From: Escherichia coli
Lineage (GTDB): Bacteria; Pseudomonadota; Gammaproteobacteria; Enterobacterales; Enterobacteriaceae
DNA length: 64,000 nucleotides
NCBI RefSeq assembly: GCF_003334355.1
Contig: NZ_QOWP01000007.1
Direction: 5' to 3' (one strand)
Shown: one piece after another, positions 1 to 9,066 of the stretch
How positions within the stretch are numbered: position 1 is the stretch's first letter
Layout of the letters: every line of letters begins with the position of its first letter
Translations under genes and position numbers: made by a program
The notes under the pieces: generated by a model
Seen by the model: only the letters and a program-made list of their open reading frames with translations
Told to the model about the DNA's origin: nothing
Databases searched by the model: none

Positions 1-402
1 ATGCTTCCATCGGAAACGATGATCTGGCAGCCTGAGTTCACAGATAAAACACTCTCCAGGAAACCCGGGGCGGTTCACCCGAAAAGCTTCTTTAAATCTC
101 TGTCGCAAATCATCACGCCAGGCATCTTTATTCAGCCGTCCATATTTCTTTCCCATCCAGGCGTTATCACCAACACGCTCAAGATGCGGAGGGTCTAATA
201 CAACCATCGAAAAAGATGCGTCTGCAAATGATAATGCACGAAAATCTGCGATAATGTCAGGGCTGATAATCAAGCGTCTCCCATTGCGTAATGTGTATCC
301 TTCTTTTCTGATATCGCTGAATATCGCCCGTTTGTCAGACTTATCGAACCAGAACATGCGGCTGCCACAGCACATATCAAGAATGGTTGCCGGTGCACTC
401 AC
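1..402 (-). CDS. Prophage SAM-dependent amino-methyltransferase, N-terminal part only (gene continues past window start)
   Basis: Minus-strand translation from GTG 402 (or ATG 375): MSAPATILDMCCGSRMFWFDK (motif I-like) followed about 48 aa later by VVLDPPH (motif IV-like, DPPY-type). Open to position 1. Not in the ORF track because it is truncated by the window edge. Confidence 0.5.
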   Translation of the reverse strand, partial: MSAPATILDMCCGSRMFWFDKSDKRAIFSDIRKEGYTLRNGRRLIISPDIIADFRALSFADASFSMVVLDPPHLERVGDNAWMGKKYGRLNKDAWRDDLRQRFKEAFRVNRPGFPGECFICELRLPDHRFRWKH

Positions 403-821
403 TGCGCCACGTCCTGAAAATTACCCTGATAGAAAGCCAGTATGCGCTGCATAACTTCGCTCTTCCGGCACTCGCGACAGATTATTTTTAGGCGACTGTC
501 GTAGCGACGTATTTCTCCGTCAGGTGATGACCAGATAAGGTCCGGATCAACCACAGCAGGTTTCTTCACCTTTGCCCTCGAGAGTTTTTTGCGGGCGTTT
601 TGCCAGTCCTTACGCACCTGTTCAGAGGGGAATAACCCGTAGCCGGAGTTGTATACATCGCCACTGGCTACCAGCTCTCTGGCAAGAACGCTCATCAGAT
701 ATCTAGTCGCACCTGTTTTAGCTTCCAGTTGCCGTAACGTCTCACGGCCGCTCTGGCGCACGAGTTCCACCACCTGCCATTTAATTTTTTCCCGCTCTTC
801 TTGTGTAAAAACTTTTGCCAC
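399..821 (-). CDS. Hypothetical prophage protein, 140 aa, between replication gene and methyltransferase
   Basis: Intact ORF with basic, possibly DNA-binding N-terminus; stop overlaps the methyltransferase GTG (GTGA). Function not recognisable from sequence. Confidence 0.5.
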   Translation of the reverse strand: MAKVFTQEEREKIKWQVVELVRQSGRETLRQLEAKTGATRYLMSVLARELVASGDVYNSGYGLFPSEQVRKDWQNARKKLSRAKVKKPAVVDPDLIWSSPDGEIRRYDSRLKIICRECRKSEVMQRILAFYQGNFQDVAQ

Positions 822-861
822 AAGTCCCCCTTAAAATTACCTCATGACCTGAAATCAACAC

Positions 862-1827
862 TTATCCTCTGAAACCAGGCGGAATTTCTGTATCCGGTTC
901 AGAAATATGATTAACACAACGCTGTACAGGTGAACGTCCCAGGCGGATGACCAGTTCGTCCCATTTTTCGCGGAGCTTTGACGGGCTCATGATGTTTTTT
1001 ACCCAGAATGGATCTCGCTGAACCCGACCAAACATTTCGCAAATTTGTCTGTGGCTTCTGCCATCCAGCATCCGCATTGTGCGCACGTCATTGGCCCAGG
1101 CAGTCCAGTTAGGCTCTTTTGGTCGCATGATCTCGCCATCATCACTGGCTGCCTGTTCGTAGAGACCCACGATCCGCCCCCAGATCCACTGCGCACACGC
1201 CAAATCCTCCCTGCTACCCCACTGGCGTTTTTTCGCACTAAACACAACCGCGTCGGAGTTCCGGGTTAAAGAATCCTGTTCAGTCGTCTGCGGGTCCGGT
1301 TGCGAAGCTTCCGGACGAAAAGTGTTTTTATTCTCTGTAGTAATCTCTGTTGTATTCTCTGTAAGATCATCAGGCCATTTTGACCCGATGACATTGGGTC
1401 GTTTTGAACCAATGGAGCGTTTCATTTTGACCTCTTCCATCGTGTCATTTTGACCTGATGGAGCGGCGCATTTTGAACCGATGGATTCGCTCAATTTGCC
1501 ACCATCTAAAAGCTCGCTCCCATAGTTGATCGTGTAGAAATTGGTCATATCGCGCTTTGATTTATTGAGCTTTTCACAACGCAAAAGCCCCAGCGTTTTC
1601 AGACTTGCAAACGCGCGCTTTAACGTTGACTCTGACCAGAATGGGAACTGTTCCAGCCATTGTTCCGTTGTGTTATAAATCCAGCGAACACCATCACATT
1701 CCATGCCGGAGTTGGTATCTCTCAACCAGTAGTGCAGTTGTTGCAAAACAATGGCTTCGTTTAAGCCAATTTTCATTGCCAGCTGCGTGTTTATAACCAG
1801 TGGGCGTTCAGCAAAAAGAAGGCTCAT
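862..1827 (-). CDS. Prophage replication initiator / replisome-organizer-like protein
   Basis: ORF 862..1881; N-terminal HTH-like region (EQWLEQFPFWSESTLKRAFASLKTLGLL), iteron array inside the coding sequence, located at the lambda O position after cro. Start chosen at an internal Met to limit overlap with the upstream ORF; 1881 or 1776 are alternatives. Confidence 0.55.
   Translation of the reverse strand: MSLLFAERPLVINTQLAMKIGLNEAIVLQQLHYWLRDTNSGMECDGVRWIYNTTEQWLEQFPFWSESTLKRAFASLKTLGLLRCEKLNKSKRDMTNFYTINYGSELLDGGKLSESIGSKCAAPSGQNDTMEEVKMKRSIGSKRPNVIGSKWPDDLTENTTEITTENKNTFRPEASQPDPQTTEQDSLTRNSDAVVFSAKKRQWGSREDLACAQWIWGRIVGLYEQAASDDGEIMRPKEPNWTAWANDVRTMRMLDGRSHRQICEMFGRVQRDPFWVKNIMSPSKLREKWDELVIRLGRSPVQRCVNHISEPDTEIPPGFRG
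1374..1500. repeat. Iteron array (5-6 direct repeats, core ATTTTGACC / TTTTGAACC, ~23 bp period) inside the replication gene: putative prophage origin
   Basis: Cores at ~1377, 1401, 1424, 1446, 1469 and a degenerate one at 1492; mirrored at protein level by repeated SIGSK / VIGSK peptides. Confidence 0.55.
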
Positions 1828-7312: not shown

Positions 7313-7564
7313 ATGAGCGAAGTAATCATGATTGTCTCTCCCGGCAAATGGGTATCCGAAGAGCAGTTAATTGCGCTGAAAGGAATAAAAAAAGGTACGT
7401 TAAAAAAGGCCCGGGAAAAATCGTTTATGGAAGGAAGGGAATATAAGCATGTCGCTCATGACGGTATGCCATGGGATAACAGCCCATGCTTTTACAACCT
7501 GGAAGAAATTGATCGCTGGATTGAGCGCCAGGCATCAGCGAGACCAAGACGTCATCTTACTTGA
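7313..7564 (+). CDS. Excisionase-like protein (Xis)
   Basis: 83-aa ORF immediately upstream of the integrase, same strand. Confidence 0.6.
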   Translation: MSEVIMIVSPGKWVSEEQLIALKGIKKGTLKKAREKSFMEGREYKHVAHDGMPWDNSPCFYNLEEIDRWIERQASARPRRHLT

Positions 7565-7583
7565 CTAAAAGCCACACTAACTA

Positions 7584-8879
7584 ATGAGAGAAGTTGAAAT
7601 GAAATATCCGACAGGCGTGGAAAACCATGGAGGGAAATTACGTATCTGGTTTGTTTATAAAGGCGTAAGAGTCAGGGAAAATCTGGGGGTTCCTGACACA
7701 GCAAAAAACAGGCGCGTTGCAGGTGAACTACGCGCCTCTGTTTGTTACGCAATAAAAACTGGTGTTTTCGACTATGCAAAACAGTTTCCCTCCTCACGCA
7801 ATCTGGAAAAATTTGGTGAGGCCCGACAAGATTTAACCATAAAAGAACTGGCTGAAAAATTTCTGGCACTGAAAGAAACTGAAGTCGCAAAAACATCACT
7901 CAACACATACCGTGCCGTCATCAAAAATATCCTGAGCATAATCGGTGAAAAAAATCTTGCCTCATCGATTAATAAAGAAAAATTACTGGAGGTTCGTAAA
8001 GAGCTACTGACTGGATACCAGATCCCCAAAAGTAACTATATTGTTACACAACCAGGGAGATCGGCTGTAACTGTAAATAATTACATGACAAATCTTAACG
8101 CCGTGTTCCAGTTTGGTGTTGATAACGGTTACTTGGCAGATAACCCGTTTAAGGGGATCTCGCCATTAAAGGAATCAAGAACCATTCCGGATCCTCTTTC
8201 GCGGGAGGAATTCATCCGTCTTATCGATGCGTGCAGAAATCAGCAAGCCAAAAATTTATGGTGTGTTTCTGTTTATACTGGCGTTCGCCCTGGTGAGCTG
8301 TGTGCACTTGGATGGGAGGACATAGATCTGAAAAATGGAACAATGATGATCAGGAGAAATTTAGCAAAAGACCGTTTCACGGTACCAAAAACACAGGCGA
8401 GAACCAATCGGGTCATTCATCTTATTAAGCCAGCAATCGACGCTCTCCGGAGTCAGATGACATTAACGAGACTGAGCAAAGAGCATATCATTGATGTTCA
8501 CCTCAGAGAGTATGGCAGAACAGAAAAACAAAAATGCACCTTTGTTTTTCAACCTGAAGTGTCAGCGAGAGTAAAAAATTATGGTGACCATTTTACCGTT
8601 GACTCAATAAGGCAGATGTGGGACGCAGCGATAAAACGTGCCGGACTCCGCCATCGAAAATCATATCAGTCGAGACATACTTATGCCTGCTGGTCGCTGA
8701 CAGCTGGTGCTAACCCGGCATTTATAGCAAACCAGATGGGCCATGCAGATGCGCAAATGGTATTTCAGGTATACGGAAAATGGATGTCTGAAAACAATAA
8801 TGCACAGGTAGCTTTGTTAAATACACAGTTAAGCGAGTTTGCCCCAACCATGCCCCATAACGACGCAATGAAAAATTAA
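7584..8879 (+). CDS. intQ: Prophage tyrosine integrase, intact
   Basis: 431-aa ORF; C-terminal catalytic region SRHTYACWSLTAGANPAFIANQMGHADAQMVFQVYGKW (H-x-x-R ... Y). Start may be the downstream MKYPTGV at 7599. Confidence 0.8.
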   Translation: MREVEMKYPTGVENHGGKLRIWFVYKGVRVRENLGVPDTAKNRRVAGELRASVCYAIKTGVFDYAKQFPSSRNLEKFGEARQDLTIKELAEKFLALKETEVAKTSLNTYRAVIKNILSIIGEKNLASSINKEKLLEVRKELLTGYQIPKSNYIVTQPGRSAVTVNNYMTNLNAVFQFGVDNGYLADNPFKGISPLKESRTIPDPLSREEFIRLIDACRNQQAKNLWCVSVYTGVRPGELCALGWEDIDLKNGTMMIRRNLAKDRFTVPKTQARTNRVIHLIKPAIDALRSQMTLTRLSKEHIIDVHLREYGRTEKQKCTFVFQPEVSARVKNYGDHFTVDSIRQMWDAAIKRAGLRHRKSYQSRHTYACWSLTAGANPAFIANQMGHADAQMVFQVYGKWMSENNNAQVALLNTQLSEFAPTMPHNDAMKN

Positions 8880-9066
8880 TTTAATATTTATCAAATAGTT
8901 AACACGTATGACTCTTGAAATCCATAAATTTAAGCGCAGTGCCCAGCCATCCCGATACTGCTGCTTTCACCAAATCCTTAGTGCTTCTTTCGTGTTTTTC
9001 TATTGTCATAATGGTTATCTCTAAAAAAGAGGTAAGATGCGTACTACTTACTCGCCGTTATTGGTA

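Follow-up and report, generated by a model that had tools for sequence, protein, structure and literature searches.

A prophage arm beside rspB

We analysed a 64,000-nucleotide stretch of Escherichia coli DNA (the window), the first 64 kb of the 180-kb draft contig QOWP01000007.1 (GCA_003334355.1), which starts within an insertion sequence (IS). Positions 78-8927 of the window are almost certainly the integrase-proximal (right) arm of a lambda-like prophage of the Qin or 'PPydfJ' family, integrated in chromosomal ydfJ at about codon 28, beside rspB. Prophage DNA adjoins rspB on its left, and E. coli chromosome extends from 9067 on (rspB, rspA, ynfA, ynfB, speG etc.), with rspB, rspA and ynfA neighbours as in K-12. 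Several features are those of the Qin/ydfJ family. Integration is at the 5′ end of ydfJ, beside rspB, with a core common to attL, attR, attP and attB; a dicBF operon (ydfABC-dicF-dicB-ydfD) lies downstream of an immunity region of the DicA/DicC type; and the integrase is orthologous to IntQ, with 99.0% nucleotide identity to K-12 intQ′ over 7720-8879. There is no frameshift, stop or deletion in 78-8927. The arm is structurally complete, and this is the ordinary state of the ydfJ locus in E. coli; the kind of element, its insertion site and its relatives are all already known.

An earlier description made from the letters alone (the sequence-only reading) had presented an intact arm free of IS elements, running from a cro-like gene through replication genes on one side and from a cI-like repressor through ydfABC-dicF-dicB-ydfD, an 823-amino-acid (aa) exonuclease, xis and int on the other. 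The list of open reading frames (ORFs) and family searches establish that all of these genes are present and uninterrupted, but the arm is not IS-free, as positions 1-77 are the end of an IS3-family element.

Attachment sites and integration within ydfJ

The junction between prophage and chromosome contains the following features.
8917-8927, no strand assigned: attR core, GAAATCCATAA, with the prophage/chromosome junction at 8927/8928
8899-9009, minus strand: ynfP, the 5′ end of ydfJ (start codon and ~28 further codons) displaced by integration, placed by the K-12 annotation, the attB reconstruction and PMC6379469

The sequence-only reading had expected the attR core within 8880-9066, and its position was fixed by the attL of a relative, the attP of phage PhiR42_1 and a rebuilt empty attB. 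No sequence of 11 bp or longer other than the core recurs at the left junction of this prophage in strain LR-64-1. The core is also present at the annotated left end of K-12 Qin. In the PhiR42_1 attP, it is flanked by the sequence left of the window attR and by the sequence right of attL, and phage homology to the window ends exactly at 8927. For genome counts, here and below, 5,426 complete E. coli genomes were searched. The attB rebuilt from the chromosomal sides of attL and attR (226 bp) is uninterrupted, at 99.6%, in 2,011 of these genomes, in which it is annotated as an intact ydfJ next to rspB. The contexts of the core at the other junctions are:
attL: …GCGAATATAACTG-GAAATCCATAA-TTCACAG…
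attP: …GACTCTT-GAAATCCATAA-TTCACAG…
attB: …ATAACTG-GAAATCCATAA-ATTTAAG…

As ydfJ is intact across the rebuilt attB, integration splits this gene after ~28 codons and leaves ynfP behind. A tRNA-type attB was considered and excluded, as no transfer RNA (tRNA) gene was found in the window, in which DicF is the only structured RNA. Qin is documented to insert at the ydfJ 5′ end, removing 28 codons, and to occur in 48% of strains, its size varying between 11 and 97 kb (PMC6379469). The attP of a ydfJ prophage has been amplified by the polymerase chain reaction (PCR) from O26:H11 strain 11368 (PMC8112680). K-12 Qin does not excise, its intQ being inactive (PMC3105296).

dicBF operon, exonuclease, excisionase and integrase

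The rightward genes of the arm, from the dicBF operon to the integrase, are:
3198-4675, plus strand: body of the dicBF operon, with 96.2% nucleotide identity to K-12 (aligned block 2911-5535)
3198-3353, plus strand: ydfA (ORF list)
3355-3483, plus strand: ydfB (ORF list)
3513-3731, plus strand: ydfC (ORF list)
4073-4124, plus strand: dicF small RNA (sRNA; Rfam RF00039, 76.7 bits against a gathering score of 48)
4299-4487, plus strand: dicB (NCBIfam DicB, 132.8 bits, above the curated cutoff)
4484-4675, plus strand: ydfD (ORF list)
4769-7240, plus strand: uninterrupted 823-aa exonuclease, the full-length YdfE (PHROG 2082 over residues 1-822 of 823)
7313-7564, plus strand: excisionase (xis), 83 aa (PHROG 539, E 1.4e-35)
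7584-8879, plus strand: tyrosine integrase (Int), 431 aa, or 426 aa from the second ATG at 7599 (Pfam domains)

The exonuclease has a C-terminal DEDDh-type 3′-5′ exonuclease domain (residues 642-813; Pfam Rv2179c-like, E 1.2e-66) and is identical to its PhiR42_1 counterpart at 812 of 823 residues; homology to K-12 ends within its gene, at position 5535. Likeness to RecE is confined to residues 246-625 (NCBIfam exodeoxyribonuclease VIII, 277 bits against a cutoff of 1269), and no gene for a RecT/Bet-like partner is present beside the exonuclease. Given this likeness in the middle only, the DEDDh end and the lack of such a partner, the label 'exodeoxyribonuclease VIII' in several phage records is a loose one.

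Xis is identical to the PhiR42_1 protein at all 83 residues, and Int at 427 of 431. Int has an Arm-DNA-bind_2 domain at residues 9-72 and a catalytic Phage_integrase domain at 206-397 (Pfam), and the catalytic residues R235, K269, Y361/R364, H387 and Y397 are all present and are invariant in 112 homologues; both the architecture and the catalytic residues are thus those of a lambda-type tyrosine integrase.

Immunity region

The repressor and cro-like genes are divergently arranged, with the following features.
2313-2540, minus strand: Cro-like regulator of the DicC family (NCBIfam NF007282, 165.8 bits against a cutoff of 130)
2555-2620, no strand assigned: divergent promoter/operator region, with palindromic predicted operators TGTTAGACTTTTCTAACA at 2555-2572 and TTAGAATTACCTAAC at 2606-2620
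2599..2572, minus strand: predicted leftward, PR-like promoter, a sigma-70 match TTGACT-16-AATAAT that overlaps the first operator pair
2622-3029, plus strand: immunity repressor of the DicA family, 135 aa (NCBIfam NF007257, 224.7 bits against a cutoff of 101)
3066-3120 region, plus strand: predicted PL-like (dicBp-equivalent) promoter, TTGCCT (3092-3097)-17-TAAATT (3115-3120), from its position and homology with K-12 dicBp
3066-3083 and 3102-3119: palindromic predicted operators, TGTTAGATCAATCTAACA and TGTTAGGTTATTCTAAAT, respectively, overlapping the PL-like promoter

The pair is not the dicA/dicC of K-12 but a related allele. By BLASTP, the window cro product is 86% identical to K-12 DicC (65/76), and the repressor is 57% identical to both the K-12 and the PhiR42_1 DicA (75/132). 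The DNA-binding half of the repressor (2635-2910) has no nucleotide match in K-12, and the 135-aa protein lacks an S24 peptidase domain. The repressor represents a distinct immunity allele, related to DicA, with its own operators. No isolated phage in the phage collection carries this allele, the best match being 94%, to a 'Rac' fragment of strain 442/2. The repressor allele (WP_000381212.1) is common among E. coli prophages, including those of LR-64-1 and EA7.

Four palindromes of 15-18 bp share the half-site GTTAGA; two are located between the repressor and cro genes and two upstream of ydfA. From this layout, the predicted operators and promoters appear to form the standard lambdoid OR/OL arrangement. 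Control of K-12 DicA is exerted by the antirepressor Rem and not by RecA, and dicBp is not activated by mitomycin C (10.1101/2023.04.14.536235); mitomycin C is a poor choice for inducing this prophage.

Replication module

Leftward of cro, the arm contains:
399-821, minus strand: DUF977/Ren-like (LygF, YdaW-like) gene (PHROG 142, E 3.9e-46; annotated DUF977 in relatives)
862-1827, minus strand: O-like replication initiator or replisome organiser, 321 aa (PHROG 391, 'replication initiation O-like', E 5.6e-91, full length)
1368-1499, inside the O-like gene: candidate replication origin, an iteron array detected by a repeat search
1808-2329, minus strand: YdaT-family/cII-like gene (PHROG 163, E 2.6e-40)

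The O-like protein has no Pfam or NCBIfam match and was identified through PHROGs; it is identical at 320 of 321 residues to the PhiR42_1 'DNA replication protein O'. Its gene contains an array of five to six iterons, each ~23 bp long (CATCnnnnCATTTTGAmCnGATG) and repeated every 23-24 bp, and an A/T-rich stretch adjoins the array at 1326-1364. Iterons so placed within the initiator gene would follow the lambda ori-in-O pattern, and we regard the array as a candidate origin. Homology to K-12 begins at window position 2050, and K-12 ydfX is, judged from this alignment, a 5′ remnant of the YdaT/cII-like gene.

Comparison with the K-12 Qin prophage

Positions 1-9300 of the window were compared by BLAST with the MG1655 Qin (b1543-b1579), with these results.
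2050-2634: K-12 ydfX and dicC, 86.8%
2635-2910: no match in K-12 (DNA-binding half of the repressor)
2911-5535: K-12 dicA 3′ end to ydfE′, 96.2%
5536-7719: absent from K-12, which has an IS2E fragment of ~704 bp instead
7720-9170: K-12 intQ′ to rspB, 99.0%

For the part of the window left of 2050, K-12 has no homologous sequence beside dicC. The alignment and the K-12 annotation agree with what the sequence-only reading had stated of K-12, namely that ydfE and intQ are disrupted by IS2 and that there is no replication module next to dicC. The window and K-12 share the ydfJ site, the 11-bp core, the dicBF operon (96% at the nucleotide level), the 3′ part of int (99%) and the divergent repressor/cro layout. 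In K-12, however, codons 256-823 of the exonuclease gene, xis and the first 45 codons of int, which encode most of the arm-binding domain, have been removed by an IS2E-associated deletion. Also lost from K-12 are the O-like, DUF977 and methyltransferase genes and the 3′ part of the YdaT-like gene, and the operator half-sites differ, being GTTAGA in the window and GTTAG(C/T) in K-12. The window arm is less decayed than K-12 Qin, as had been proposed and as both the nucleotide comparison with MG1655 and the gene content bear out, since its exonuclease and int are full-length, the latter with the arm-binding domain, and xis and a replication initiator with its candidate iteron origin are present. 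K-12 Qin is a derived minority form.

Occurrence in E. coli and in phages

By BLAST coverage, at least 80% of window positions 1-9100 is found in one place in 1,202 of the 5,426 genomes, and at least 80% of the exonuclease-xis-int-attR segment (4700-9066) in 2,246 (about 40%), versus 354 with the ydfE′::IS2 junction of K-12. An uninterrupted arm is therefore the common state, and the special status suggested for this variant does not hold; it is the usual state of an occupied ydfJ site, as the RefSeq annotation already shows.

The arm is also found in sequenced lambdoid phages:
PhiR42_1 (PV340562): 93% coverage of the arm, 98.4% identity
HannyBb (PP925841): 85% coverage of the arm, 98.0% identity
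mEp460_ev081 (LR597641): 81% coverage of the arm, 95.4% identity
Tritos (OV696610): 70% coverage of the arm, 98.0% identity

All four have the same order of methyltransferase, LygF/DUF977, O-like, cII-like, cro, repressor, ydfABC, dicF, dicB, ydfD, 823-aa exonuclease, xis and int genes. These phage records are, however, complete genomes of 45-49 kb, whereas the window has only the arm, and PhiR42_1 has DicA immunity of the K-12 type. mEp460_ev081 is a functional temperate phage that carries dicB, dicF, dicAC and rem (10.1101/2023.04.14.536235).

Among described prophages, the PPydfJ elements of enterohaemorrhagic E. coli (EHEC) and other E. coli likewise have attB in the 5′ end of ydfJ, a hotspot filled in approximately half of strains by elements of 11 to 97 kb, and an excised attP circle has been detected by PCR for one member (Nakamura et al. 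2021, PMC8112680; Ramisetty & Sudhakari 2019, PMC6379469). They differ in that the EHEC elements are often in tandem clusters with effector genes, and their published att sites are 18 or 19 bp versus the 11 bp shared exactly by attL and attR here (PMC8112680, PMC6379469). The early region of Rac (racR-ydaS-ydaT-ydaU-ydaV-ydaW, recET) has similar YdaT-family, O-like/YdaU-like and DUF977/YdaW-like genes, with ~87% nucleotide identity in parts, and the middle of the window exonuclease is RecE-like. Rac is, however, integrated at ttcA and encodes a DnaC-like YdaV, together with a RecE that has another catalytic domain and RecT, whereas the window exonuclease ends in a DEDDh Rv2179c-like domain and is without RecT.

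The left edge of the window

The first 402 positions contain:
1-77, plus strand: right end of an IS3-family element, with the transposase stop codon at 33-35 and a terminal inverted repeat ending …CCCGGGGCGGTTCA at 77
78-402, minus strand: truncated ORF for an S-adenosylmethionine (SAM)-dependent methyltransferase, from which the IS cuts off the last 9 codons

Positions 1-77 are identical (77/77) to the right end of a 1310-bp element in strain CB6837, annotated as an IS3-family transposase with a programmed frameshift and having the terminal repeat TGAACCGCCCCGGG; one end of the element is visible in the window. Through identity to its last 77 bp, the features of the IS3 family (~1.3 kb, TG...CA terminal inverted repeats and a two-ORF, frameshifted transposase) extend to the copy at the window edge, which is probably of the IS629 type. 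Thousands of IS3-family transposase loci, some of them on plasmids, match positions 1-75. The methyltransferase translation matches a 118-aa ORF of PhiR42_1 up to …KEAFRV and then enters the IS.

An identical sequence, with the same break inside the IS end, is present in three public drafts (GCA_003334355.1, GCA_002190165.1 and GCA_012531255.1). As all three draft contigs break in the IS repeat, base 1 marks the point at which the assembly stops and is not a biological end, and the remaining prophage, including attL, is on another contig. With base 1 being a draft contig end broken within the IS, the word 'intact' cannot be judged for this prophage. A Shigella-like, IS-ridden genome was considered as the possible source of the IS and of the private mutations described below, but was rejected, as there is a single IS end in 64 kb and the gene order beyond the arm looks collinear with K-12.

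Host relatives and private substitutions

EA7 is the closest host relative, with 20 differences in 29 kb, of which 11 fall in the arm and the other 9 in the flank, which is 2.3-fold longer. It carries the same arm on a ydfJ prophage of ~48.7 kb that has terminase, portal, capsid, tail, lysis, Q, rem, relBE and hokD genes and an ISEsa1 transposase remnant; PhiR42_1 (48,668 bp) also matches the Q-rem-relBE-flxA region of EA7, transposase remnant included. In LR-64-1, compared over window 76-22527, the same arm (99.9% identity) belongs to a 24.5-kb remnant that lacks head and tail genes, and the flanking chromosome is 0.9-2.7% diverged. The presence of the same arm in distinct chromosomal backgrounds points to horizontal spread or recombination of the arm. 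A tenfold higher conservation of the arm than of the chromosome, and hence a recent transfer, was also considered. The difference is true against LR-64-1 but was set aside, being partly a selection effect of choosing that strain for the identity of its arm; in the comparison with EA7, divergence is slightly higher in the arm than in the flank. For the window's own prophage, the left half may be full-size or decayed, and an EA7-like state is the more likely.

Nine substitutions in the arm are private to the window when it is compared with LR-64-1 and with EA7; seven are in coding sequence, and every one of the seven is nonsynonymous. These seven (window positions 486, 616, 6194, 6791, 7020, 8400 and 8864) result in N112K and A69V in the DUF977 protein, D476Y, P675S and R751H in the exonuclease, and G273R (an A at 8400) and E427D in Int. 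G273R is inside the invariant hairpin motif P-K-T-x-A-[GS]-T-[DN]-R, four residues past the conserved hairpin Lys269, at a non-catalytic position. Among the 112 homologues, which are 60-99% identical, this position is Gly in 67 and Ser in 45, and the solved Tn1549 Int (PDB 6EMY) has Gly at the equivalent position. None of the four phages listed above has R273. The gene segment was found in 2,523 complete E. coli genomes, none of which has G273R. The allele is real (WP_133301639.1/RCQ24499.1) and is present in a few draft assemblies that share the IS junction.

Predicted regulation and excision

The operator layout, together with the K-12 DicA literature, suggests that the DicA-family repressor would bind the four GTTAGA palindromes, two in the repressor/cro region and two over the PL-like promoter. 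It would probably be removed by an antirepressor of the Rem type, encoded further left, rather than by RecA cleavage. After derepression, transcription from the leftward promoter would express the cro-like, cII/YdaT-like, O-like and Ren-like genes, and the O-like protein would then fire the iteron origin at 1368-1499. The rightward promoter would direct expression of ydfABC, of the DicF sRNA and DicB as inhibitors of cell division, and of YdfD, the exonuclease, Xis and Int, with Int and Xis presumably recombining attR (8917-8927) with attL to excise the prophage. K-12 Qin is a derived form, through an IS2-associated deletion of 5536-7719 and the loss of everything left of 2050. The lineage of the window has two lesions of its own, the IS3-family insertion just left of the replication module and Int G273R in the hairpin of the catalytic lysine.

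Capacity for excision

No observation contradicts the identification of the element, but several bear on whether it functions in this way. The 64-kb window has neither a second att core nor the body of ydfJ; attL and the left half of the prophage are outside it, and excision and completeness are out of view. The operator, promoter and origin assignments are predictions from sequence pattern. A separate helicase loader of the P/DnaC type is absent from the module in the window, and the replication module is likewise a single gene in PhiR42_1, HannyBb and mEp460_ev081. G273R, as a non-conservative change at a position occupied only by Gly or Ser, may impair catalysis. Lastly, seven of seven nonsynonymous changes, together with 11 differences in the arm against 9 in the flank, suggest, from small numbers, relaxed constraint rather than a maintained active phage.

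A plausible account, which we hold tentatively, is that the prophage is a grounded remnant in which excision has been lost through Int G273R and/or an IS-mediated rearrangement to the left, with the host keeping the arm for dicBF and immunity. Inactivation of the integrase is the usual route by which Qin is grounded in the literature (PMC6379469, PMC3105296). The confinement of G273R to a few drafts with the same IS junction (0 of 2,523 complete genomes) is consistent with this account, but residue 273 is non-catalytic, and 78-8927 has no frameshift, stop or deletion. Similarly, the substitution pattern and the 11 arm versus 9 flank differences from EA7 suggest relaxed constraint, but seven of seven nonsynonymous changes also fit plain neutrality (~12% chance at a nonsynonymous-site fraction of 0.74).

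It is rather unlikely, in our estimation, that the prophage is fully intact, inducible and competent for excision, with the IS in a dispensable gene and the rest of a ~49-kb genome on a neighbouring contig. The ~48.7-kb prophage of EA7, which includes the same arm, does have a complete set of morphogenesis and lysis genes, and PhiR42_1 matches both the arm and the Q-rem-relBE-flxA region, but in LR-64-1 the same arm is on only a 24.5-kb remnant. The IS costs the small methyltransferase ORF only 9 codons, although such an insertion can bring with it an adjacent deletion or inversion that would be invisible in the window. All Int catalytic residues and a complete Xis are present, against which stand the non-conservative G273R at a Gly/Ser-only hairpin position and the seven private coding substitutions, all of them nonsynonymous. 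The remaining probability belongs to states intermediate between a grounded and a fully active prophage. That the region is simply the K-12 reference Qin, with which it shares the insertion site, dicBF at 96% and the int 3′ part at 99%, is refuted by the absence from K-12 of 5536-7719 (replaced by IS2E) and of everything left of 2050, and of any nucleotide match to 2635-2910.

A more specific proposal, possible but doubtful, is that the lineage of the window shows a Qin-type prophage at its first steps of grounding, to which the IS3-family insertion, Int G273R and the seven nonsynonymous private coding changes have been added. In its near-identical sister EA7 and in PhiR42_1, the arm is part of a complete genome of ~49 kb. 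Were G273R to abolish excision, the pair would provide a natural before-and-after system for the trapping of a lambdoid prophage. The main value of the comparison is in correct annotation, in that most E. coli have, at ydfJ, a full arm with initiator, complete exonuclease, xis and int, an arm that viable phages also have. Specific to this strain are the contig-ending IS3-family insertion, the rare Int G273R and a DicA-family immunity allele for which no isolated phage is on record, which are possibly of minor use for studies of prophage domestication or of DicA/Rem regulation.

Neighbouring chromosome

The gene order in the rest of the window appears to be collinear with that of K-12. In LR-64-1, ynfE is split by an insertion of ~6.5 kb that contains a site-specific integrase and hypothetical genes (34165-43164 of the LR-64-1 locus); in the window, ynfE is intact (14241-16667). 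uidB (49062-50435, minus strand) has an in-frame stop at 50211-50213, after …VDSVNTR, with the remainder in frame, which suggests a nonsense allele; the stop is at a position that we take to be Trp in K-12.

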